Positions 142 through 30,134 of a stretch of DNA of 32,492 nt are shown here, piece after piece. How positions within the stretch are numbered: the stretch's first letter is position 1; each line of letters begins with the position of its first letter. Source of the DNA: Thiomargarita sp. (GTDB taxonomy: Bacteria > Pseudomonadota > Gammaproteobacteria > Beggiatoales > Beggiatoaceae); the NCBI GenBank assembly GCA_020726335.1, contig DYSU01000028.1, positions 1-32,492 on the forward strand, read 5' to 3'. The notes beneath the pieces were generated by a model. That model did not search any database. It worked only from the letters and a program-made list of their open reading frames with translations, and was not told where the DNA came from. A program made the position numbers and the translations under genes.

Positions 142-1089
142 TTATTGTAAAATAAATTCAAGCATTTCAACAATTTCTTGATGACCTGCGCGTTTAGCGC
201 GTTGTAATGCGGTTTGTCCACCTTGGGTTTTTAAATCAGGCAACGCCCCTTTTTGCAACAACACATTGACCACCGCTTTGTGGCCATTGCCTGCCGCTTC
301 CATCAAGGCAGTGAAGCCATCGTTATCGGCAATATTGGGGTCTGCACCGTGGTTGAGCAAATCAGCAACAATATCATCGCGCCCTGTTTCTGCCACCCAA
401 ATCAATGCGGTTGCGCCTGATTTGTCTTGTAAATTGACATCGGCCCCTTTTTCAATCAGCAAACCAATGACATCTTTCATGCCTTTTTCTGCGGCGCGAA
501 TCAGCGGCGTAATGCCGTCTTTATTGGCTTGGTCAGGATTGATTTTTTCGCTGTAGTGAAACAAGGTTTCAATCACTTTCCTGTGGCCTTTTTCAATCGC
601 CACCAACAAGGCGGTATCGCCATTGCGGTCAGAAGCCCCAGGGTCCGCTTCAAAGGCCAGCAATTGCGCCACCACCAAATCATAGCCCAAACGCGATGCA
701 ATCATTAATGAATCCCAGCCTGCACGGGTTCGGTCATGGACGTTTGCACCCATTTCAATCAACATGGCCGACAACTCAACAAAACCGTTCTCAGCGGCAA
801 AAGTCAATGCGGTATTGCCTGAGCTGGTGCGGGCATTGATGTCTGCCCCTTTGGACAATAAAATCACCGCAACATCAATGCTGTTGGCTTCGGTGGCACG
901 CATCAAAGCGGTTTTGCCAAATTGGCTGGTGGCATTGACATCTACACCTTGCGCTAACAAGGCTTGAATTTTGGCGACATCATTGGCACTGGCCGCTTCA
1001 CGCAATTGCAAGCCCAAATCTTCGTTGGCTGTGGCGGCAAAACTTAAAAATAAACCCAAGAAAAACCCATATAATGTTATTTTTTTCAT
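142..1089 (-). CDS. Secreted ankyrin-repeat protein (about 8 ANK repeats) with a Sec signal peptide
   Basis: The N-terminus MKKITLYGFFLGLFLSFAATA-NE is a signal peptide with an AXA site. ANK consensus recurs throughout, e.g. GxTALMxAxxxGxxxxVxxLLxxGADxNA. The start is ATG at 1089. Confidence 0.8.
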   Translation of the reverse strand: MKKITLYGFFLGLFLSFAATANEDLGLQLREAASANDVAKIQALLAQGVDVNATSQFGKTALMRATEANSIDVAVILLSKGADINARTSSGNTALTFAAENGFVELSAMLIEMGANVHDRTRAGWDSLMIASRLGYDLVVAQLLAFEADPGASDRNGDTALLVAIEKGHRKVIETLFHYSEKINPDQANKDGITPLIRAAEKGMKDVIGLLIEKGADVNLQDKSGATALIWVAETGRDDIVADLLNHGADPNIADNDGFTALMEAAGNGHKAVVNVLLQKGALPDLKTQGGQTALQRAKRAGHQEIVEMLEFILQ

Positions 1090-1182
1090 ACTCTAACCTG
1101 TCTGTTTTCTTATTTTAAAAGAGCCTGTCTCGTTAAGATATAACATACTCATTACACGCAATCATCGATTAAAAGGGGGGTT

Positions 1183-1758
1183 TCATTTTTTAGTGTTGTC
1201 TGTGTTTGCGTCAGTTGCTGTTTCTTCAGGCTCTTCGGGCAACTCATGGGCAATGCCTTTGTGGCAATCAATACAGCTTTTGCCTTCTTCTGTTGCGCGG
1301 TCGTGTTTTTTGCGTGCTATGCGGTCCTGTTCACTGAAATCCATGTGTTCAAAGTCATGACAGCTTCGACATTCGCGTGAATGGGTGGCTTTCATTTTGT
1401 CCCAAACCCGATTGGCCATTTCCCAACGGCGGGCTTCATATTTTTCGGGGGTATCAATGGTGCCAATCAATTCGTGCCACACATCTTTGGCGGCGAAAAT
1501 TTTGGCTTTCATTTTGGGCAAAAAGGCTTTCGGCACATGGCAATCGGCACAGCCTGCATGTACGCCCGTCACGCCACGCCAATGTACCCGTTCTTGCAAT
1601 TCGGTTAAATTGGTTTTCATGCTGTGACAAGAAGTACAAAATTCGGTGCGATTGGTTTGTTCTAACGCAAAATTAAAACCGCTGATGGCTAAAACAGCCA
1701 CAATGAAAATTGTGACTGTGCCGAGCAACCATTTTTTACCTGAGGGGAACATTGACAT
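1183..1758 (-). CDS. NapC/NirT/CymA-family membrane-anchored tetraheme cytochrome c (quinol dehydrogenase-like)
   Basis: The protein has an N-terminal transmembrane helix (LLGTVTIFIVAVLAISGF). It has four CxxCH heme motifs (CTSCH, CADCH, CRSCH, CIDCH) with family-typical spacing. The start is ATG at 1758, preceded by AGGAGAtttAAGGAAA. Confidence 0.85.
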   Translation of the reverse strand: MSMFPSGKKWLLGTVTIFIVAVLAISGFNFALEQTNRTEFCTSCHSMKTNLTELQERVHWRGVTGVHAGCADCHVPKAFLPKMKAKIFAAKDVWHELIGTIDTPEKYEARRWEMANRVWDKMKATHSRECRSCHDFEHMDFSEQDRIARKKHDRATEEGKSCIDCHKGIAHELPEEPEETATDANTDNTKK

Positions 1759-1798
1759 TTTCCTTAAATCTCCTATAGATAATGAATATTATTGCGGT

Positions 1799-2545
1799 TT
1801 ATTTCTGATTTAATTGATAATTTTCATTGTGAAAACGCACAGCCGATTTGAAATCTGGACTAAAATCAGGGTTGCGCCAATTGGGCTGAGCCAATTTAGC
1901 TGCGTCAGCTTTCAATCGAGATGCGTAATCAACCACGGCGGTGATGTCGCGCCCAGTAAAATTGTGAATTTGTTGCACCATGGTTTTGTTGGCGTTGCGC
2001 CGCTTACCCAGTTGAATCCAGCGCATTTGGCGCAATAAATAATGATAGCTCTGGCCTTGTAACCGTGGATAAAATTCTCCGTTATTGCCTTCGCCGTTTT
2101 CGCCATGGCATTTAACACAATGTTCTTGATAGATTTTTTTGCCGTATTCCAAATCGCGGCCAAAGCCCACTTCATTGTTGGGATTCATTGGCAATTGCGA
2201 TAAATAGGCGGCAATATCGGTCATACATTGCGCACCGCCCATGGCTTCTTGGCTGGCAAAAGGTAACATGGTGGGGTTGTCTCGATTGCCTGCGCGAATA
2301 TCGGCCAATTGCTTGATGATCACATTGGGGTGTTGGCCTGCCAACTGGGGATAATGGCCGGTCAGCGTTCCCCAAGCTTCAGCACCGTGGCAAATGGCGC
2401 AGTTGTGATACACTTTCCGGCCATTTTCGATATTTGGTTTTAACGATAAAGCTTCGATTTGTTCTGCAGTGGGTTCAGTTGCCCAAGCGATTTGGAAATG
2501 GCTGAATACGATCGCAGCCAAGATAGTCAAACGTCTATCCTGCAT
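1799..2545 (-). CDS. Diheme c-type cytochrome, cytochrome c4-like, periplasmic
   Basis: There is a signal peptide. Two CxxCH motifs are present (CAICH, CVKCH). YPQLAGQ- and YPRLQGQ-type motifs are typical of c4/c553-family diheme cytochromes. Confidence 0.8.
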   Translation of the reverse strand: MQDRRLTILAAIVFSHFQIAWATEPTAEQIEALSLKPNIENGRKVYHNCAICHGAEAWGTLTGHYPQLAGQHPNVIIKQLADIRAGNRDNPTMLPFASQEAMGGAQCMTDIAAYLSQLPMNPNNEVGFGRDLEYGKKIYQEHCVKCHGENGEGNNGEFYPRLQGQSYHYLLRQMRWIQLGKRRNANKTMVQQIHNFTGRDITAVVDYASRLKADAAKLAQPNWRNPDFSPDFKSAVRFHNENYQLNQK

Positions 2546-2631
2546 AGTGATTCTCTAAGGATGGTATGAATTCAAAAACCTGTTGTTCATAAACTCAAAC
2601 AACAGGCTTCATCTATAGCTGGATAGACCCG

Positions 2632-3939
2632 TTAGCCAAAAATATCATGGGTAATGTTGGCAAACCAACTGTACGCATAGTGTACTTCACGGGCTTTTTG
2701 TTCAGGTGTGGCATCGGCTGGGGTTAAACCACCTGAAACTTGGGTGATGGTTTCACCTTCCAAACGATACACGGCAGTCACAGAAATACCATAGTTAGGG
2801 CCGATGATGCTGTAACAGGTATTGACATAGGCAGGTGTCACCATTTCTTTGCCTTGCAAGGAAGCGATCACGGCAGTGGCACACACTTTGGCTTGTGAGC
2901 TGGCAGAATAGGCTGATTTTGGCATGTCAGTGGCAATACATGCGTCGCCAATCACATACACGCCTTTATGCACGCTTGATTCAAAGGTTTGTTTGTTGAC
3001 AGGACACCAACCTGATTCATTGGTCAAACCCGCTTGGTGTGCAATTTTGCACGCCACTTGAGGCGGGATCACATTCAACACATCGGCTTTGATGACATCT
3101 TCCATTTCGCCTGCGGTCACGGTTTTGGTTGTGGCATCAATTTTAACCACTTTACCACCGCCGCTGGCGGGCCGCCATTCAATCAAACTGCCTTCATTTT
3201 TGCCATTTTGCTCAATATCATAGCCGTATAACTCTTTCCAACCTTGGGTAAATAAACCTTGTTTGGAGAATTTATCACTGGCATCTAAAATCAATACTTT
3301 AGATTTGGGTTTGTTGTTTTTCAGATAATGCGCGATTTGGCTGGCACGTTCATAAGGTCCAGGTGGGCAACGGAAAGGGCTGGTGGGTGGGCAAATGACC
3401 ACAGTGCCACCGTCGGCCATTTCTTCCAATTGCTTGCGCAATAACGCTGTTTGTGGACCTGCTTTCCATGCGTGCGGAATGGTTTCAGAGGCTTTTTCAT
3501 CGTAACCTTCAATTGCATCCCATTTAAAACCGACACCAGGGGAAACCACAATGCGGTCAGCGGTAAAATCACCCGATTTAGCGGTGGTCACTTTTTTGGT
3601 GGCCGCATCAATGGCGGTGACTTCATCAATCACCACTTTAACGCCATGTTTGCCTAAACCGTCGTAGCCAAATTTAATGCTGTCTAAACTGCGGTCGCCG
3701 TTCAACACTTCATTGCTCATAAAACAAGTGTGGTAATCGGCATTTTTTTCAATCAAGGTCACTTCAACAGAAGGGTCAGCCATGCGAATGTATTTGGCTG
3801 TGGTTGCACCACCGACCCCTCCACCGACAACCACCACTTTTTTGCCTTCACCTTTGGCAATAAAAGGGATGCCAGAAAAGCTGATTGCAGCGGTGCTGGC
3901 AGATAATTTTAAGAAATTTCTACGAGTTATTTGCGTCAT
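2632..3939 (-). CDS. fccB: Flavocytochrome c sulfide dehydrogenase, FAD-binding flavoprotein subunit, Tat-exported
   Basis: A twin-arginine signal is present ([14 protein letters not shown]). The FAD fold motif [16 protein letters not shown] is present. Overall length matches FccB/SoxF-type sulfide dehydrogenases. The ORF-track start at 3954 is a TTG. I prefer the in-frame ATG at 3939, which is preceded by GGAGG with an 8-nt spacer and puts the RR motif near the N-terminus. Confidence 0.85.
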
Positions 3940-3956
3940 ACTGTTTTCCTCCAAAC

Positions 3957-4577
3957 TTATTTGCGGCTACCGTAAAAATGAATCACGTTGTCAATGGCAC
4001 CATCGCCTTCTTTTTGCACCATTTTTTCGATACGTTTTTGCATTTTTTTCGGCATTTCACGCGCACCCGATTGAAAATCTTCCATCGCATAGTGCAAATA
4101 AGGCATCCATTGACCGGCTAAAACGCCTGCACCGTCTTCATCTTTGGTGCCTTCTTCAACGTGGCATTTTTCACAATATTCTTTGTGTAATTTTCGACCT
4201 GCATCCGCTTTAGCGGCATCTGCATTTTGGGCAGAAACGAGTAAAGTTTGTTTAGAAAAAAAATCGCCCATCGCTTCAAAATCAGCATCTGCGTAACCTT
4301 GGGCAATACGGTTCATGATAGTCCCTGAACGGGTACCCTCTTTATAAGCTTTCATCGCGTCTACCAAAGTGTCTTTGCCCATGCCTGCAATCGAAGGGCT
4401 GGCAGGTCCAAAGCTTGAACCATTGGTGCCGTGGCAACCTGCGCAAGTATTGCCCAACATCACACTGTCTGCCCCCGATGCGGCCAAGGCTTTATCTTCG
4501 GCAACTGCCGCATTGATATGTAAAACAAATCCTGCGGTTAAAAGCAAAGTAGAACCCAGTGCTTTTTTATTTATCAT
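3957..4577 (-). CDS. fccA: Flavocytochrome c sulfide dehydrogenase, diheme cytochrome c subunit
   Basis: There is a signal peptide. Two CxxCH motifs are present (CAGCH, CEKCH). The gene sits immediately upstream of fccB in the canonical fccAB order. A strong SD (GAGGAGG) precedes ATG at 4577. Confidence 0.8.
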
Positions 4578-4939
4578 ACATGCCTCCTCAATGGCGCTGT
4601 GTCATACATACTTTAAAAACCTCAGTAAAAACACCTTTTTTCTAAAAAAGACCAACCAACTGTTTTAAACTGAAATGGTTTCTATCAACAAAATTAAGCC
4701 GCCACAGAATACATGAAAACAAACTATTGAGCCAGTTTTTTTGCTAAAAAAATCAATAACCACAATTAATTAATGGAAATGTATTTTTAATATAAGTATT
4801 TAATACTATGTAAATATTATGATATAACATTTATTTTTGCTGTAATAAAAACCTTACTTATTGTATTTTTTTAGTCAAACTGATTTTTATCGCAAAAATG
4901 AGGGGTTATTGTAAAAAACACCTGATAAAAAAAGGGTTT

Positions 4940-5569: not shown

Positions 5570-8526
<2,957 letters not shown>

Positions 8527-8535
<9 letters not shown>

Positions 8536-8562: not shown

Positions 8563-9183
8563 TTAATGACCCAGACCAGAAATATACGCGGCGACCGCTT
8601 CCATTTCAGTGTCGTTCATTTTGCTGGTGATGTCTTGCATGATTTGGGTTGAAGGGCTGCCTGTGCGGCTGCCATCACGAAAAGCTTTTAATTGTTTGAC
8701 CACATAGGCCGCTTGTTGGCTTTGAATTTGAGGATAATTGGCCGCAGGATTGCCCATGCCTTTTTCACCATGACAAGCCGCGCAAGCCATTAAATTTTTT
8801 GCCAAATCACCGCCATGATAGATTTTTTTACCCACTTTATTGTCACTGGGCGCACCCAAAGTCAACTTTTGACGGGAAAAATGGGCGGCTAAATTGGCCA
8901 TGTCTTGTTCGGTCAATGGTTCAACCATCGGTTGCATGGAAGGGTCAATGCGGGTTTTGCTTTTAAATAATTTCAACTGGTTGACGATATAATCAGGATG
9001 TTGGCCTGCTAATTTTGGAAAGATCGGAACAAGGCTGTTGCCGTCAGCCCCATGACAGGCAGCACAAGTGACCGATTTTTCCTTACCTGCGGCAGCATTG
9101 CCCGCCATTTTAACCGCAATATCTGTGGCGAAAACGGCATGAGAAGCGGCTAAAATACTCAGGGCTAAAGTCAATTTTTTCAT
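8563..9183 (-). CDS. Cytochrome c4 (diheme, periplasmic)
   Basis: There is a signal peptide. Two CxxCH motifs are present (CAACH twice). FPKLAGQ and YPQIQSQ motifs are diagnostic of cytochrome c4. Confidence 0.85.
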   Translation of the reverse strand: MKKLTLALSILAASHAVFATDIAVKMAGNAAAGKEKSVTCAACHGADGNSLVPIFPKLAGQHPDYIVNQLKLFKSKTRIDPSMQPMVEPLTEQDMANLAAHFSRQKLTLGAPSDNKVGKKIYHGGDLAKNLMACAACHGEKGMGNPAANYPQIQSQQAAYVVKQLKAFRDGSRTGSPSTQIMQDITSKMNDTEMEAVAAYISGLGH

Positions 9184-15508: not shown

Positions 15509-16560
15509 TGGGCGCGTATACCGTTAAACGCTTGTTGTTGATGATTCCCACTTTGTTTGGCGTGATGTTGGTCACTTTTGTGGTCACTCAATTTGTGCCG
15601 GGCGGGCCGGTTGAACAACTGACGGCGCAATTGCAAGGCAAAAACCCAGCGGGTGAAGCCAGCAGCGGCGCGCAAGGTTTGTATCGCGGCGCACGCGGTT
15701 TAGATGCCGAACAATTGAATAAAATCAAGGCATTTTATGGCTTTGATCAGCCCGCGCATCAACGCTTTTGGCTGATGATGAAAAAATATTGGGTGCTGGA
15801 TTTTGGCGACAGTTATTTTCATCACCAATCGGTGTTGGATTTGGTCATGGCCAAATTGCCTGTGTCGATCAGCTTGGGCGTGTGGACGTTTTTGCTCACC
15901 TATTTAACCTGTATTCCGCTGGGTATTGCCAAAGCCATGCGTGACGGCACAGGTTTCGATGTATTCACCAGCACCTTGATTTTAATCGGTTATGCCGTTC
16001 CGGGCTTTGTGTTGGGGGTTGCGTTGTTGGTGTTGTTTGGCGGCGGCAGTTTTTGGGATATGTTTCCGTTGCGCGGCCTTGTTTCGGACAACTGGGGTGG
16101 CTTGAGTTGGTTGGGCAAAATCACCGATTATTTATGGCACATGGTGTTGCCCATCACCGCGCTGATGGTCGGCAATTTCGCGGTGATGACTTTGTTGACC
16201 AAAAACAGTTTTATTGAAGAAATTCGCAAACAATATGTGTTGACCGCTCGCGCTAAAGGTTTGAGCGAAAATGCCGTGTTATACAAACATGTGTTCAGAA
16301 ATGCGCTGATTCCATTGATCACAGGTTTCCCCAGCGCGTTCATCGCGGCTTTTTTCACGGGCAGTTTGTTGATTGAAACCGTGTTTTCGTTGGATGGCTT
16401 GGGTTTGTTGTCGTATGAATCGGTGATTAAACGCGATTATCCCGTGGTGTTGGGAACGTTGTATTTATTCACATTATTGGGCTTGGTTGGCAAACTGTTG
16501 TCCGACTTAAGCTATGTGTTCATTGACCCGCGCATTCAATTTGATTCGGCCAATGGCTGA
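15508..16560 (+). CDS. yejB: ABC transporter permease, YejB/OppB family (peptide/microcin C uptake type)
   Basis: The protein aligns end to end with E. coli YejB (MGAYxxRRLLLxIPTL ... LTARAKGLSE EAA-loop ... DPRIxF). Its ATG overlaps the manC stop (TAATGG). No partner permease, binding protein or ATPase is present in the window. Confidence 0.85.
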   Translation: MGAYTVKRLLLMIPTLFGVMLVTFVVTQFVPGGPVEQLTAQLQGKNPAGEASSGAQGLYRGARGLDAEQLNKIKAFYGFDQPAHQRFWLMMKKYWVLDFGDSYFHHQSVLDLVMAKLPVSISLGVWTFLLTYLTCIPLGIAKAMRDGTGFDVFTSTLILIGYAVPGFVLGVALLVLFGGGSFWDMFPLRGLVSDNWGGLSWLGKITDYLWHMVLPITALMVGNFAVMTLLTKNSFIEEIRKQYVLTARAKGLSENAVLYKHVFRNALIPLITGFPSAFIAAFFTGSLLIETVFSLDGLGLLSYESVIKRDYPVVLGTLYLFTLLGLVGKLLSDLSYVFIDPRIQFDSANG

Positions 16561-17350
16561 CATGAATCCTTATTTGATTTTTGCGCTGGTTGGCGTGGTG
16601 GCAGGGGTGTTGGCGGGCTTGTTTGGCATAGGCGGCGGCTTGGTGTTGGTGCCTGTGTTGATTGCTTTATTTGCCCAGCAACAGTTCAACCCAGAAATCA
16701 GCGTGCATTTGGCCATCGGTACGTCATTGGCCATCATCGTGTTCAACGCCAGTGTGGCCAGTTGGTCACATCATCAACGCCACGCGGTGTTGTGGCCTGT
16801 GGTGCAAAAACTGAGTTTGGGTTTGCTGGTGGGCGCGTGGCTTGGCGCGATGTTGGCCAAACAACTGGCCGCGCCTATGCTCAAGCAATTGTTCGGCCTG
16901 TTTGAAATACTCATTGGATTGTATTTGATGGTGCGCTATCAACCCCAAGCCCAAAACGTGAAGCCACAACGTGGGTTGTTGTTGGGCGTGGGTTTGTTTA
17001 TCGGCTTCATTTCCGCACTGCTGGGCATAGGGGGCGGCACGTTGACCACGCCTTTTTTGCTGTGGCGCAAAGGGGTGATGCAACAAGCCGTGGCCACTGC
17101 CGCCGCTTGTGGTTTGCCCATCGCCTTGGCGGGTACCTTGGGTTTTGTGGTCACAGGCTGGCAACAACCCCAGTTGCCTGCGTTGACCACAGGTTATGTC
17201 TATTGGCCTGCAGTCTTGGCAATTGCGTTGTTCAGTTTCGTTGGCACTCATTTTGGGGTGATTTTAGCCCATCGTTTGCAACCACAAAAATTAAAACAAG
17301 GGTTTGCCTTTTTTTTATGTGGGGTTGGTTTTCATATGTTGTTAAAATAA
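16553..17350 (+). CDS. TauE/SafE (DUF81) family anion/sulfite exporter membrane protein
   Basis: The two-repeat membrane protein has GIGGGLVLVP and GIGGGTLTTP motifs. The start is taken at ATG 16553 (MADMNPY). ATG 16562 is an alternative. The ORF-track start at 16514 lies inside yejB. Confidence 0.75.
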   Translation: MADMNPYLIFALVGVVAGVLAGLFGIGGGLVLVPVLIALFAQQQFNPEISVHLAIGTSLAIIVFNASVASWSHHQRHAVLWPVVQKLSLGLLVGAWLGAMLAKQLAAPMLKQLFGLFEILIGLYLMVRYQPQAQNVKPQRGLLLGVGLFIGFISALLGIGGGTLTTPFLLWRKGVMQQAVATAAACGLPIALAGTLGFVVTGWQQPQLPALTTGYVYWPAVLAIALFSFVGTHFGVILAHRLQPQKLKQGFAFFLCGVGFHMLLK

Positions 17351-18848: not shown

Positions 18849-19718
18849 TTGAATGCTCATTTCAAACGCAATGGTGTCAGGCTTTATCTGGGTGATGTAA
18901 TTGATGTATTAAAGCAATTACCCGATGAAAGTGTTGACCTGATATTTGCTGATCCACCCTATAACTTGTCAAATGACGGTTTTACTTGCTATGCAGGCAA
19001 ACGGGTCAGTGTTAATAAAGGAAACTGGGATAAGAGCCGAGGCATCAATACAGATTTTGAGTTCCATTATAATTGGTTACAAGCTTGTAGGCGCGTACTA
19101 AAACCCAATGCTTCATTGTGGCTATCTGGAACATATCATTCAATATATGCTTGTGGTTATGCTATTCAACAGCAAGGTTGGCACATTATTAATGATATTT
19201 GTTGGTTTAAACCCAACGCTACACCCAACTTATCATGTCGTATGTTTACCGCAAGTCATGAAACCCTGCTTTGGATAAGAAAAGATAAGAAAGCAAAACA
19301 CGTTTTTAACTATGAGGTAATGAAAAATGGTGATTTCCCAGATGATTTAATAAAAAAGCCCAATAAACAAATGCGAAGTATTTGGGCAATTAGTACCCCA
19401 AAAAATACAGAAAAAAGACATGGTAAACATCCTACACAAAAACCTGAATCATTATTGGACAGAATTATCCTTGCTTCATCAAATGAAAATGATATTGTAC
19501 TTGACCCCTTTTGTGGTAGTGCGACAACAGGTGTTTGTGCTTTAAGACATCATCGTCGATTTATTGGTATTGATAATAACAGTGAGTATTTAAACAATCT
19601 GGCCATTAAAAGATTAGGTGATGTAGTTGATGAAAATCAAGCATTCTTTATTAGAGAACAACAAACGGAATATCGTTTTGATACATTGGATGGTTTATTT
19701 GAAAATAAAAGGACTTAA
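18849..19718 (+). CDS. Beta-class DNA methyltransferase (DPPY motif, N6-adenine or N4-cytosine), methyltransferase of a putative Type II R-M pair
   Basis: Motif IV DPPY is at residues 35-38 (LIFADPPYNLSNDG). The AdoMet motif DPFCGSATTG is near the C-terminus, which gives beta-class order. The TTG start at 18849 lies 8 nt after AGGAAG. The gene is AT-rich relative to its flanks. Confidence 0.8.
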   Translation: MNAHFKRNGVRLYLGDVIDVLKQLPDESVDLIFADPPYNLSNDGFTCYAGKRVSVNKGNWDKSRGINTDFEFHYNWLQACRRVLKPNASLWLSGTYHSIYACGYAIQQQGWHIINDICWFKPNATPNLSCRMFTASHETLLWIRKDKKAKHVFNYEVMKNGDFPDDLIKKPNKQMRSIWAISTPKNTEKRHGKHPTQKPESLLDRIILASSNENDIVLDPFCGSATTGVCALRHHRRFIGIDNNSEYLNNLAIKRLGDVVDENQAFFIREQQTEYRFDTLDGLFENKRT

Positions 19719-19720
19719 CA

Positions 19721-20329
19721 ATGGAAAGAAAAGAAGCTATTGCCCGTTTAAAAACGATTGTTGGCCAAGAGTTGCATCATATTGCCAAACAATATAATGT
19801 CACAGTAAATAAGGATGGTAAAGTTAATAAAGGTTGGGCAGGTCATATTTTTGAAAGATTTTTAGAATTACCTATTAATTCTGCCCAGTCTCCCAATTTT
19901 GGTTCATGGGAACTTAAATCAATACCCATAAAAACACTAAAAAATGGTAAGAAAGTGATTAAAGAAACAATGGCAATCACCATGATTGATCCAATCAATG
20001 TTTGTCAAAAAGATTTTGTAGACAGTCATTTGTTAGCGAAATTAAAAAAAGTGGTGCTTGTGGCCAGAACGGTAGGACAGACTGTTGATGATCCCAGTTA
20101 TATCCATTCGATTATTGAGTTTGATTTACAGGGTGAACTGTATCATAAGGTAAAAACTGATTATGACCTTATCAGAGAGATTCTACTTGATCCAAAACAG
20201 GGATTTGATTCATTAACTGGAAAGATGGGTGTTTATATACAGCCAAGAACCAAGGGGACTGGGCATGGCTCAAAAACGCGTGCATTTTATGCACGAAAAA
20301 AGTTTTTACAAGCGTTTATTAGAATTTAA
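19721..20329 (+). CDS. MutH/Sau3AI-family (PD-(D/E)xK) endonuclease, single domain, putative GATC-specific nuclease of the R-M pair
   Basis: KGWAGHIFERFLELP..SPNFGSWELKSIPIK aligns with the MutH core KGWxGxLLExxLG...DFxxxGxELKTIP. The C-terminus FYARKKFLQAFIR resembles MutH FYLKKNFTSALLARHF. The ATG lies 2 nt after the methyltransferase stop, with AAAGGA upstream. The gene is AT-rich. Confidence 0.7.
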   Translation: MERKEAIARLKTIVGQELHHIAKQYNVTVNKDGKVNKGWAGHIFERFLELPINSAQSPNFGSWELKSIPIKTLKNGKKVIKETMAITMIDPINVCQKDFVDSHLLAKLKKVVLVARTVGQTVDDPSYIHSIIEFDLQGELYHKVKTDYDLIREILLDPKQGFDSLTGKMGVYIQPRTKGTGHGSKTRAFYARKKFLQAFIRI

Positions 20330-27947: not shown

Positions 27948-30134
27948 ATGGAGTTTTCCAGTATCAGCGTCGTTATTGTCATCGCCATTGCGGTGATTTT
28001 ATTGGGTATGTTCGTGTTTGTATTGCGCTTTTTCCAAAAAGTCGATCAAGGCAAAGCCTTGATTGTCAACACCATGAAAGCCGAACCTGTGGTCACGTTT
28101 ACGGGGCGAATTGTGTTGCCTGTGGTGCATAAATCCGAAGTGATGGACATCTCATTGAAAACCATCGAAATTGACCGCCGTGGCCATGAAGGGTTGATTT
28201 GCTGTGACAACATCCGCGCCGACATCAAAGTGACTTTTTTTGTGCGGGTCAACAAAACCAGCGAAGACGTGCTGAAAGTGGCGCAAGCCATCGGTTGCCA
28301 TCGCGCTTCTGACCAACGCACGTTAGAAGAATTGTTCAGCGCGAAGTTTTCAGAAGCCTTAAAAACCGTCGGTAAGCAATTGGATTTTGAGGATTTATAC
28401 AAAGAGCGCGATTCTTTTCGTGACAGCATCATCCGTTTGATTGGCAAAGATTTGAACGGCTATGTGCTGGAAGATGCGGCCATCGACTTTTTAGAACAAA
28501 CCCCGCTCAACTCACTGGACCCCAGCAATATTTTAGACTCTCAAGGCATTCGTAAAATCACCGAATTGACCACTGAACAGCATGTGCAAACCAACAATTT
28601 TGAAAACCAAGAGCGGATGCGTATCACCAAACAAAATGTGGAATCCCAAGAAACCATTTTAGAATTGGAACGCCGCCAAGCGGATGCGATGGCCAAACAA
28701 CAGCGCGAAATTCAAACCGTTAAAGACCGCGAAGCGGCAGAAATCGCGTCAGTGGCCGCCGAACAACGCAAACGCAGCGAACAAGCGCGCTTGGCGGCAG
28801 AAGAGCAAATCGGCATTTCAGAACAAAACAAACAGCGCGAAATTGAAGTGGCCGAGCAAAACCGCCAACGGGTGGTCGGCATTGAAACCGAACGGGTCAG
28901 CTTGGCGCGGGAACAAGAGGTGATTAAACGCGAAAAAGAAGTGGCGTTGTTGCGCATTGCCAAAGAAGAAGCCGAAGAAGAGAAAAGGCGCGACATCGCC
29001 AATGTGATTCGAGAACGCATTGCGGTGGAAAAAACCGTGGCCGAACAAGAAGAACAAATCAAAACCTTGCGCGCCACTGCCGAAGCGGAGCGTGATAAAC
29101 AAGTGATCATTTTAAATGCCGAAGCCGAAGCCGAAGAAAGCTTGGTCAAAGGCATCAAAGCGGCAGAAGCGGCGGAAAAAGCGGCCAGTTTCAAGGCGCG
29201 GGAAGTGATTGTGTTGGCCGAAGCCGAACGCGAAGTGGCGGATAAAAAAGCCTTGGCTAAAATTCGCTTGGCCGAAGGCACGCAAGCAGAAGCGGCGGCG
29301 GCGGGTTTGGCGCAAGTGGTGGTCAAAGAAGCCAATGCCTTGGCGATTGAAAAACAAGGCATTGCCGAGGCCAAAGCCAAATTGGAAAGTTACCGCGCTG
29401 ACGCGGCGGGTGAAGAGCAAAAAGGGCTGGCTTTGGCGCGGGTGAAAGAAGCCCATGCACAAGCCTTGGAAAAAGAAGGTTTGGTTCAGGCCAAAGTGGA
29501 ATTGGAAAAAATGCAGGCGGTGGCCATCGGTCAGGAACAACAAGGCTTGGCGCAAGTGCGGGTCAAAGAAGCTGATGCCGATGTGATTGAAAAACGCGGT
29601 CATGCGGAGGCGCAGGCATTAAAGGAACGCTTGTTGGCCGAAGCGGAAGGTTTGGCAGAGAAATTTAAATCATTGGATGCGCTCAGTGAACAAGGCCGAA
29701 GTCATGAGGAATTTCGCCTGCGTTTGGAACAAGAGTTGACCATGCAAAAAGAAATGATTAAAGCGCAAATTGTCAACGCGGAAAAACAAGCCGAAGTGCT
29801 GGCTTCGGCCTTGAGTAAAGCCAAAATCGATATTGTCGGTGGCGATGAACTGTTTGTCCATAAGTTGTTGAAAAGTACGGCGATGGCCAAAAGCATCGAT
29901 GGTTTTGCCCGCAAAAGCGAAACGGCCCAGCAGCTGTTCAAAGATTATTTCAGTGGCGATGCCAGTTTTACCCAAGATGTGAAACAGATTTTATCTGACC
30001 CCAGTTTGTCATCCAAAGATGTGCAGAACCTGACTTTGGCGGCGTTTGTGCAAAAGCTGATGCAAAAAGGCAACGTTGAACAAAAAGCGCAATTGGCTAA
30101 GTTATTGGATTTATTCAAAGAACAGCCCAAATAA
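27948..30134 (+). CDS. Flotillin/SPFH (band 7) family membrane protein, YqiK-like, with a long EA-rich coiled coil
   Basis: There is an N-terminal transmembrane helix followed by an SPFH domain. A 350-aa Glu/Ala/Lys-rich coiled coil with tandem repeats follows. SD AGGAG lies 6 nt upstream of ATG 27948. Confidence 0.8.
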   Translation: MEFSSISVVIVIAIAVILLGMFVFVLRFFQKVDQGKALIVNTMKAEPVVTFTGRIVLPVVHKSEVMDISLKTIEIDRRGHEGLICCDNIRADIKVTFFVRVNKTSEDVLKVAQAIGCHRASDQRTLEELFSAKFSEALKTVGKQLDFEDLYKERDSFRDSIIRLIGKDLNGYVLEDAAIDFLEQTPLNSLDPSNILDSQGIRKITELTTEQHVQTNNFENQERMRITKQNVESQETILELERRQADAMAKQQREIQTVKDREAAEIASVAAEQRKRSEQARLAAEEQIGISEQNKQREIEVAEQNRQRVVGIETERVSLAREQEVIKREKEVALLRIAKEEAEEEKRRDIANVIRERIAVEKTVAEQEEQIKTLRATAEAERDKQVIILNAEAEAEESLVKGIKAAEAAEKAASFKAREVIVLAEAEREVADKKALAKIRLAEGTQAEAAAAGLAQVVVKEANALAIEKQGIAEAKAKLESYRADAAGEEQKGLALARVKEAHAQALEKEGLVQAKVELEKMQAVAIGQEQQGLAQVRVKEADADVIEKRGHAEAQALKERLLAEAEGLAEKFKSLDALSEQGRSHEEFRLRLEQELTMQKEMIKAQIVNAEKQAEVLASALSKAKIDIVGGDELFVHKLLKSTAMAKSIDGFARKSETAQQLFKDYFSGDASFTQDVKQILSDPSLSSKDVQNLTLAAFVQKLMQKGNVEQKAQLAKLLDLFKEQPK
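29307..29640 (+). repeat. Three tandem copies of a roughly 117-nt (39-aa) in-frame repeat inside the flotillin coiled-coil region
   Basis: Units start near 29307, 29424 and 29545. They encode ..QGLAxVxVKEAxAxxIEKxGxxEAxxxLE... The repeat is coding, not CRISPR-like. Confidence 0.5.

Follow-up and report, generated by a model that had tools for sequence, protein, structure and literature searches.

The window analysed here is a stretch of 32,492 nucleotides (nt) from Thiomargarita sp. (contig DYSU01000028.1, assembly GCA_020726335.1), and the subject of this report is a gene cluster on its minus strand (4577-142) in which the genes for flavocytochrome c sulfide dehydrogenase adjoin genes for two further cytochromes and an ankyrin-repeat protein. 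Five co-directional open reading frames (ORFs) follow each other in the order fccA, fccB, a c4-like diheme cytochrome gene, a gene for a tetraheme cytochrome of the NapC/NirT family (hereafter NapC-like), and an ankyrin gene. A preliminary description of this DNA had listed these five minus-strand genes, and all of the ORFs were found at the coordinates it gave. The intergenic distances of 86, 40, and 93 nt given there were also correct, while the spacer between fccA and fccB was corrected from 2 to 17 nt, counted from the ATG of fccB at 3939. Of the Shine-Dalgarno sequences attributed to each gene, those of fccA, fccB, and the NapC-like gene are clear, and those of the diheme and ankyrin genes are weak.

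The first gene, fccA (3957..4577), encodes a protein of 206 amino acids (aa) with two CXXCH motifs, and GAGGAGG precedes its ATG. The protein was matched to the cytochrome subunit (1FCD_C) of 1FCD, the flavocytochrome c structure of A. vinosum, with E = 6.4e-53 and to 3VRD_A with 2e-50 over residues 39-205. The gene for the flavoprotein subunit, fccB (2632..3939), encodes 435 aa from the ATG at 3939, and its start in the ORF list is the TTG at 3954. The ATG is most likely the true start, with GGAGG located 8 nt upstream and a near-identical contig also called at 435 aa. Pfam domains of the product were FCSD_central (PF21706, 9.4e-48), FCSD-flav_bind (PF09242, 2.3e-25), Pyr_redox_2, and TAT_signal. 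Against 1FCD_A the protein scored E = 6.6e-158, and the chain cysteines Cys42, Cys161, and Cys337 all aligned to cysteines. In FccB of Allochromatium vinosum, we take these three to be the covalent FAD-binding cysteine and the redox-active pair. The FCSD domains, the three cysteines, the adjoining diheme FccA gene 17 nt upstream, and the TAT export motif are all present, and by homology the pair is predicted to be a genuine flavocytochrome c sulfide dehydrogenase with the corresponding activity. Between hisG and fccA lies an AT-rich intergenic region of 362 nt (4578..4939, minus strand), which is the probable promoter region of the cluster. The scan for sigma-70-like sites upstream of fccA gave one match (4846-4819), no better than shuffled expectation.

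The NapC-like gene (1183..1758, minus strand) encodes a membrane tetraheme cytochrome of 191 aa, or 189 aa from an alternative start at 1752. PF03264 was assigned over residues 10-175 with 3.3e-67, and the N-terminus forms a hydrophobic membrane helix, WLLGTVTIFIVAVLAISGF, as judged by eye. The four CXXCH motifs of the protein are invariant in 120 NapC-like homologs. In the alignment with NrfH (2J7A_C), M47, K86, and D92 of the window protein correspond to Met49, Lys82, and Asp89, respectively. Among the 120 homologs, M47, the methionine of CXXCHxM, is conserved in 118, while the helix-2 lysine K86 and D92 occur in all of them. Because these residues are conserved and the CymA equivalent of K86, Lys91, is required for quinol interaction (PMC2762525), the quinone site of this clade is likely intact. 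The extra histidines H59, H152, and H171 are invariant as well. At the CHVPH motif of E. coli NapC, the histidine (H94) is replaced by lysine (K77) in 112 of the 120 clade members. Another change occurs 18 residues past this motif, where E. coli NapC carries glycine, TorC carries glutamine, and the clade carries histidine (H95, 118/120). From the mutagenesis of Paracoccus NapC, H94 of the E. coli protein is presumably one of four distal heme ligands. If this role holds, one heme of the clade may have a relocated or changed axial ligand, which is put forward as a lead, not a result.

Assignment of the protein to NapC in the strict sense was rejected, as its scores were below the cut-offs for TIGR02161 (napC_nirT; 225 against 310.6), PRK10617 (195 bits against 349), and TorC (223 against 478). 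Membership in a nap operon was rejected likewise, with E. coli NapA, NapB, NapG, and NapH giving no tblastn match in the window and 83 related loci (1.2 Mb).

The ankyrin gene (142..1089, minus strand) encodes 315 aa with matches to Ank_2 (1.2e-73) and Ank (3.4e-51). Its Sec-type N-terminus, MKKITLYGFFLGLFLSFAATA, was judged by eye and fits the periplasmic location proposed earlier, while the number of repeats was revised from eight to about nine, a cap plus eight, as a 33-residue register is visible over that many repeats. Among the orthologs, 46 of 54 have a signal-like N-terminus by a crude rule, and repeats 2-4 are best conserved. An exact sequence look-up of four tubeworm-symbiont ankyrin proteins returned no match. 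The remaining gene of the cluster (1799..2545, minus strand) encodes a periplasmic c4/TsdB-like diheme cytochrome c of 248 aa with a signal peptide, as judged by eye, and two Cytochrom_C stretches. Its best solved relatives are 5LO9_A in the N-terminal part (1.9e-16) and cytochrome c4 6Q2U (1.8e-14). Both domains align to c4 structures (1e-13 to 1e-14) with methionines at the expected places, a similarity that holds at the family level only. The protein ends in a C-terminal tail of about 40 residues and stays below the cut-off of every curated model.

Relatives of the cluster were identified by scanning one genome per species with an alignment of NapC-like homologs. The synteny set comprises 80 loci with NapC-like genes 57-75% identical; these are the best 80 of at least 578 relatives and were surveyed from the NapC side only. 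Their neighbours were mapped by tblastn with the five window proteins. Nearly all loci belong to sulfur-oxidizing Gammaproteobacteria, with Thiomargarita, other Thiotrichales, Sedimenticolaceae, Chromatiaceae, and Granulosicoccus represented, and loci from Candidatus Thiodiazotropha, Candidatus Thiosymbion, and tubeworm symbionts were also included. A comparison of fccAB neighbourhoods had been suggested in the preliminary description, and here it showed that the NapC-like, ankyrin, and fccAB genes remain associated in the 80 genomes, in several different orders. Of the 74 loci with room for an ankyrin gene next to the NapC-like gene, 64 have it immediately downstream, a near-constant position that fits the earlier interpretation of the ankyrin protein as a dedicated factor of the system. 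Of the 43 loci flanked by 4.5 kb or more on each side, 34 contain both fccA and fccB; at least one of the two was found in 59 of all 80.

Gene orders are abbreviated with N for NapC-like, K for ankyrin, A for fccA, B for fccB, and D for diheme, and lower case marks the opposite strand. The most frequent orders were NKAB and NKABd with 25 and 16 loci, respectively, followed by DNK (6), ABDNK, which is the order of the window itself (5), and DNKba (4), with ABN, NAB, and baN in a few loci. The closest metagenomic relatives (84% and 73% identical) retain the five-gene order with different flanking genes. Clustering of the 1156 ORFs of all loci yielded no other conserved partner family; of the next-largest families, some were artefacts read antisense to ankyrin or fccB genes in genomes of high GC content, and the others were lineage-specific housekeeping genes. 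In the rest of the 32,492-nt window, housekeeping genes and no periplasmic reductase were seen. The possibility that the NapC-like gene is the conserved partner of an unrelated reductase, which had been named as a potential objection, found no support in the neighbourhoods that this comparison covers, where neither nap genes nor another conserved reductase occurred. The arrangement had first been taken for an unusual context of fccAB, and it turned out to be the predominant one in this gammaproteobacterial group. Rearrangement without dispersal argues for selection on adjacency. Selection thus appears to have held the five genes together, and it is very probable that the cluster is a functional unit.

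The diheme gene is an accessory part of this unit. Its ortholog was found in 25 of the 43 loci with full flanks and is not fixed, which speaks against the dedicated diheme shuttle envisaged beforehand. Further diheme genes were observed near these clusters. In the window, a second diheme class I cytochrome c gene (8563-9183, minus strand; 206 aa; Cytochrom_C 3.8e-19) is located about 4 kb from the fcc cluster, past hisG, murA, and a signalling-protein gene. Its product groups with the FccA/c4-like family and is probably the ordinary cytochrome c4 of the organism. In 11 loci with the NKABd order from Thiodiazotropha and tubeworm symbionts (L015, L022, L027, L029, L031, L041, L053, L074, L076, L078, and L081), a further diheme gene occurs just past the inverted diheme gene, at about +5.1 to +5.9 kb relative to the NapC-like gene. 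Its product shares about 30% identity with the diheme protein of the window, and a conserved 172-aa ORF comes next; the two genes may extend the cluster in a lineage-specific way. In L086, the closest metagenomic relative, the gene upstream of the fcc cluster (986-2674, minus strand) belongs to the dCTP deaminase family and is interrupted by an intein.

Transcription of the cluster as a single unit, as assumed at first, is doubtful. A terminator-like hairpin with the core CCUGUUGUU / AACAACAGG followed by UUUUU (2574..2610, minus strand) is located 21 nt past the fccB stop. Its stem has 13-14 bp, and the whole 86-nt spacer gave z = -1.8, which is modest by itself. The hairpin was missed by a simple terminator scan and was spotted by eye and then folded. 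A hairpin with a U-run occurs at the same spot, in unrelated sequence, in four relatives that share the gene order of the window (L086, L087, L004, and L005; z -2.8 to -4.4), and two of these four hairpins are textbook intrinsic terminators. This recurrence and the inverted or separate position of the modules elsewhere are the grounds for doubting the single transcript. From the T-run to the ATG of the diheme gene the distance is 28 nt, and the scan found no promoter-like site between the hairpin and that gene. The diheme, NapC-like, and ankyrin genes therefore probably depend on read-through past the hairpin. Its likeliest reading is that of a candidate attenuator, which would set the expression of fccAB above that of the other three genes and would not isolate them. 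As the diheme-NapC-ankyrin unit elsewhere stands alone or faces fccAB on the opposite strand, the cluster consists of two modules rather than one obligatory transcript. One is fccAB; the other comprises the NapC-like and ankyrin genes, often with the diheme gene ahead of them.

Published expression data are available for two relatives of the cluster. In A. vinosum on pyrite compared with dissolved sulfide, log2 fold changes of 6.2 for Alvin_1092 (fccB), 7.5 for Alvin_1093 (fccA), 4.8 for Alvin_1094, and 5.4 for Alvin_1095 were reported, which corresponds to a co-induction of 28-175 fold (PMC11267869). In that study, Alvin_1094 is an uncharacterized protein, while Alvin_1095 is a 4-heme cytochrome c whose function was called unresolved by the 2024 authors (PMC11267869). 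In the proteome of the Riftia symbiont, four proteins that bear consecutive accessions were all detected, namely the tetraheme cytochrome EGV51004, the 313-aa ankyrin protein EGV51005, FccA (EGV51006), and FccB (EGV51007). The study filed EGV51004 as nitrate reduction and EGV51005 as host interaction, and a separate protein of the symbiont, EGV52153, is annotated NapC. Sister tubeworm symbionts in the synteny set have the NKAB order and a 313-aa ankyrin protein. In the literature searched, no paper was found that explicitly discusses fccAB in connection with NapC or ankyrin.

We propose a route from FccAB, optionally through the diheme cytochrome, to a membrane module of the NapC-like cytochrome and the ankyrin protein and on to quinone, and assign this model a probability of roughly 0.5. 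Sulfide would be oxidized at the flavin and disulfide of FccB, and the electrons would pass next to the hemes of FccA. From there they would reach the NapC-like cytochrome, either directly or via the soluble diheme cytochrome, and enter the quinone pool through a quinone site of the NrfH/CymA type. In the periplasm, the ankyrin protein would serve the membrane cytochrome as a docking or scaffold partner. The gene identities, the conserved adjacency, the lack of other partners, the co-induction in A. vinosum, and the detection of the Riftia-symbiont proteins are observations, whereas we infer that the proteins touch each other, what the ankyrin protein does, and in which direction the electrons flow. 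Of the hard-wired link between sulfide oxidation and the quinone pool that had been suggested before, the link itself is plausible from the conserved M47, K86, and D92, while its hard-wiring through a diheme shuttle is not supported. The forward direction, quinone reduction, is preferred mainly because electron transfer from sulfide to quinone is thermodynamically downhill and the reverse through FccAB is strongly uphill. A precedent is given by ImoA, a NapC/NirT protein of a lithotroph that was proposed to reduce quinone (PMC9600427).

A stronger version of the proposal is tentative. FccAB, the ankyrin protein, and the NapC-like cytochrome could possibly form a heme-wired membrane sulfide:quinone oxidoreductase assembly, in which the K77/H95 ligand change would tune the NapC-like cytochrome towards reducing quinone instead of oxidizing quinol. 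If true, this assembly would be the long-missing physiological electron outlet of flavocytochrome c, the normal-looking fccAB mutants would be explained by redundancy with SQR, and its ankyrin component would be the first ankyrin-repeat protein to serve as a scaffold in a bacterial respiratory chain.

Several points weigh against the route to quinone. Adjacent fccAB genes are absent from 8 or 9 of the 43 well-flanked loci, and the ankyrin gene is missing from some loci. The diheme-NapC-ankyrin module was also found alone, as a tight operon among housekeeping genes (L002, L030, L033, and L010), and a scan of the neighbours of these operons for redox enzymes gave unrelated genes only. The tested NapC/NirT members that were checked in papers oxidize quinol, including ImoA in Shewanella (PMC2762525, PMC9600427). 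CymA-type hemes have low potentials of +10 to -229 mV (PMC2762525), and part of the path to ubiquinone would therefore be uphill. Mutants of A. vinosum in fccAB oxidize sulfide at wild-type rates (PMC3368242), so that the route is at best redundant with SQR. A 2019 study compared the genes around fccAB in A. vinosum, Chlorobium, Paracoccus, and Thiobacillus and reported that none were conserved (PMC6382920). As these are distant sulfur oxidizers, the association is specific to the clade studied here, and it has been little discussed.

The NapC-like cytochrome might instead act as a canonical quinol dehydrogenase, with electrons flowing from a quinone pool filled by SQR or other dehydrogenases to the c4-like diheme cytochrome or FccA. 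Such a path would be a branch that reaches a terminal oxidase or reaction centre independently of bc1, and in the extreme case FccAB would run backwards and reduce stored sulfur under anoxia. This direction agrees with CymA, NapC, and NrfH, which oxidize quinol, as ImoA does in vivo, and the four stand-alone operons with no fccAB nearby indicate that the diheme-NapC-ankyrin unit can function without adjacent Fcc. The diheme protein is moreover c4-like, and the c4 family donates to cbb3 oxidases. The adjacency of fccAB and the NapC-like gene where no diheme gene is present (25 loci with NKAB, and ABN and NAB) is left unexplained, however, and quinol-driven sulfur reduction through FccAB would be strongly uphill on general thermodynamic grounds. 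Co-induction with fccAB under sulfide scarcity on pyrite also fits a role on the donor side better, and we regard the canonical direction as rather unlikely.

It is less probable still that the NapC-like/ankyrin pair serves FccAB indirectly, as a membrane tether or by redox poising of the hemes or the disulfide with a small current from the quinone pool. The ankyrin repeat is a protein-binding fold and is here tightly coupled to a membrane cytochrome, and the periplasmic ankyrin protein AnkB of Pseudomonas aeruginosa supports the heme enzyme KatB. Membrane-bound flavocytochromes c have been reported according to the titles of papers, and fccAB mutants without a phenotype leave room for non-essential accessory roles. 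In the Riftia symbiont, however, the abundance of FccA is approximately matched by that of the tetraheme cytochrome and that of the ankyrin protein, which fits stoichiometric partners better than maturation factors, and the ankyrin gene is absent from some clusters (ABN and NAB). An adjacency without meaning, in which the NapC-like gene would belong to a nitrate, nitrite, or other reductase encoded elsewhere and the ankyrin protein would be a secreted factor of host or cell interaction, appears very unlikely given the synteny. Source annotations do name the NapC-like proteins NapC, and the categories chosen in the Riftia study point the same way. Yet the cluster is kept in free-living bacteria and symbionts through several rearrangements, the 1.2 Mb of neighbourhoods hold no nap genes, and the protein falls below the NCBIfam cut-offs for NapC, NirT, and TorC. 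The Riftia symbiont has a second protein annotated NapC, and in A. vinosum the NapC-like and ankyrin genes are co-induced with fccAB.

The value of the cluster lies in the breadth of its conservation, in the signature of the clade, and in a path by which the physiological outlet of flavocytochrome c can be tested. With Alvin_1094 and Alvin_1095, synteny leads to a concrete proposal on the acceptor of flavocytochrome c that can be tested in the genetically tractable A. vinosum. Annotations routinely place members of the cluster under "NapC, nitrate reduction" and "ankyrin, host interaction", as in the proteome of the Riftia symbiont. The signature CHVPK ... DV[W/Y]HE together with an ankyrin gene downstream is a simple way to tell these genes from true nap/nir components. 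In a giant sulfur bacterium, an isolated homolog of the NapC/NirT family (nrfH) was taken to suggest nitrate reduction to ammonium.

Other features of the window were recorded along with the cluster. Between murA and the second cytochrome gene, a 566-aa ORF (6835-8535, minus strand) with a C-terminal GGEEF motif and N-terminal regions that look PAS-like by eye encodes a probable diguanylate cyclase sensor. On the plus strand, a TauE/SafE-family sulfite exporter gene (16514-17350, 6e-53) overlaps an ABC-type permease gene at that gene's end; the exporter may have a part in sulfur metabolism but has no link to the fcc cluster. Two genes at 18849-20329 (plus strand), the first for an N6/N4 DNA methylase (1.4e-60) and the second for a MutH/MvaI-BcnI-like endonuclease, are probably an acquired type II restriction-modification pair and lie in the stretch of lowest GC content in the window (0.34 at 19-20 kb). 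A 728-aa ORF (27948-30134, plus strand) had no Pfam match at 1e-5. Its product, which by eye resembles flotillin/YqiK, has a membrane helix at the N-terminus and a long coiled-coil-like region rich in Glu, Ala, and Lys, and this explains the strong GC and AT skew at 28-30 kb. Scans for tRNA genes and tandem repeats found none.

Among known systems, E. coli NapC (b2202) is a protein of the same family and size that is 47% identical to the window protein and shares with it the four CXXCH motifs, the CXXCHxM of heme 1, the lysine of helix 2, and three of the four extra histidines. The window protein differs in having no nap genes nearby, in scoring below the NapC equivalog cut-off, and in the clade-specific lysine for the CHVPH histidine and histidine for glycine. 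NrfH is the only solved relative (2J7A_C, 1.4e-8), and its three quinone-site residues align with conserved residues of the window protein, while CymA has the equivalent of the lysine. NrfH and CymA are remote from the window protein in sequence, work with other partners (NrfA or, in Shewanella, many reductases), and oxidize quinol. In its layout of two class I cytochrome c domains, the diheme protein agrees with cytochrome c4 and with the TsdB domain of the thiosulfate dehydrogenase TsdBA (5LO9), and it aligns over both domains, whereas it matches them only at the family level, carries the C-terminal tail, and has no tsdA nearby.

For the route as a whole, the chain of Nitrosomonas from HAO via cytochrome c554 to cytochrome cM552 leads from a periplasmic dehydrogenase through a soluble multiheme cytochrome to a NapC/NirT membrane cytochrome and ubiquinone. 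This is a working analogy only; the dehydrogenase and the shuttle differ, and the chain has no ankyrin partner. ImoA (Slit_2495) with MtoD of Sideroxydans lithotrophicus is likewise a lithotroph NapC/NirT protein proposed as a quinone reductase fed by a periplasmic cytochrome, whereas its electron source is iron oxidation, not sulfide. The only activity shown for ImoA, in a heterologous host, is quinol oxidation (PMC9600427), which makes it a precedent for the doubt about direction as much as for the idea.

The nearest known system is the fcc locus of A. vinosum (Alvin_1095-1092), which contains the same four core genes, for the tetraheme cytochrome, the ankyrin homolog, FccA, and FccB, and the Chromatiaceae loci of the synteny set have the NKAB order of this type. 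A NapC/NirT gene followed by an ankyrin gene with a signal peptide and adjoined by fccAB, which defines the Fcc-linked tetraheme/ankyrin cluster, is also found in the window. The window differs in its order fccA-fccB-diheme-NapC-ankyrin, in the extra c4-like diheme gene, and in the hairpin after fccB. For Chromatium vinosum, the order tetraheme-ankyrin-fccA-fccB was reportedly implied by Dolata et al. in 1993 (J Biol Chem 268:14426), to judge by the title of that paper. As this title and the locus tags of A. vinosum agree on that arrangement, the core, sequenced as early as 1993, is not new, and the window adds one more cluster of this kind, in which the genes are ordered differently and a diheme gene is included.

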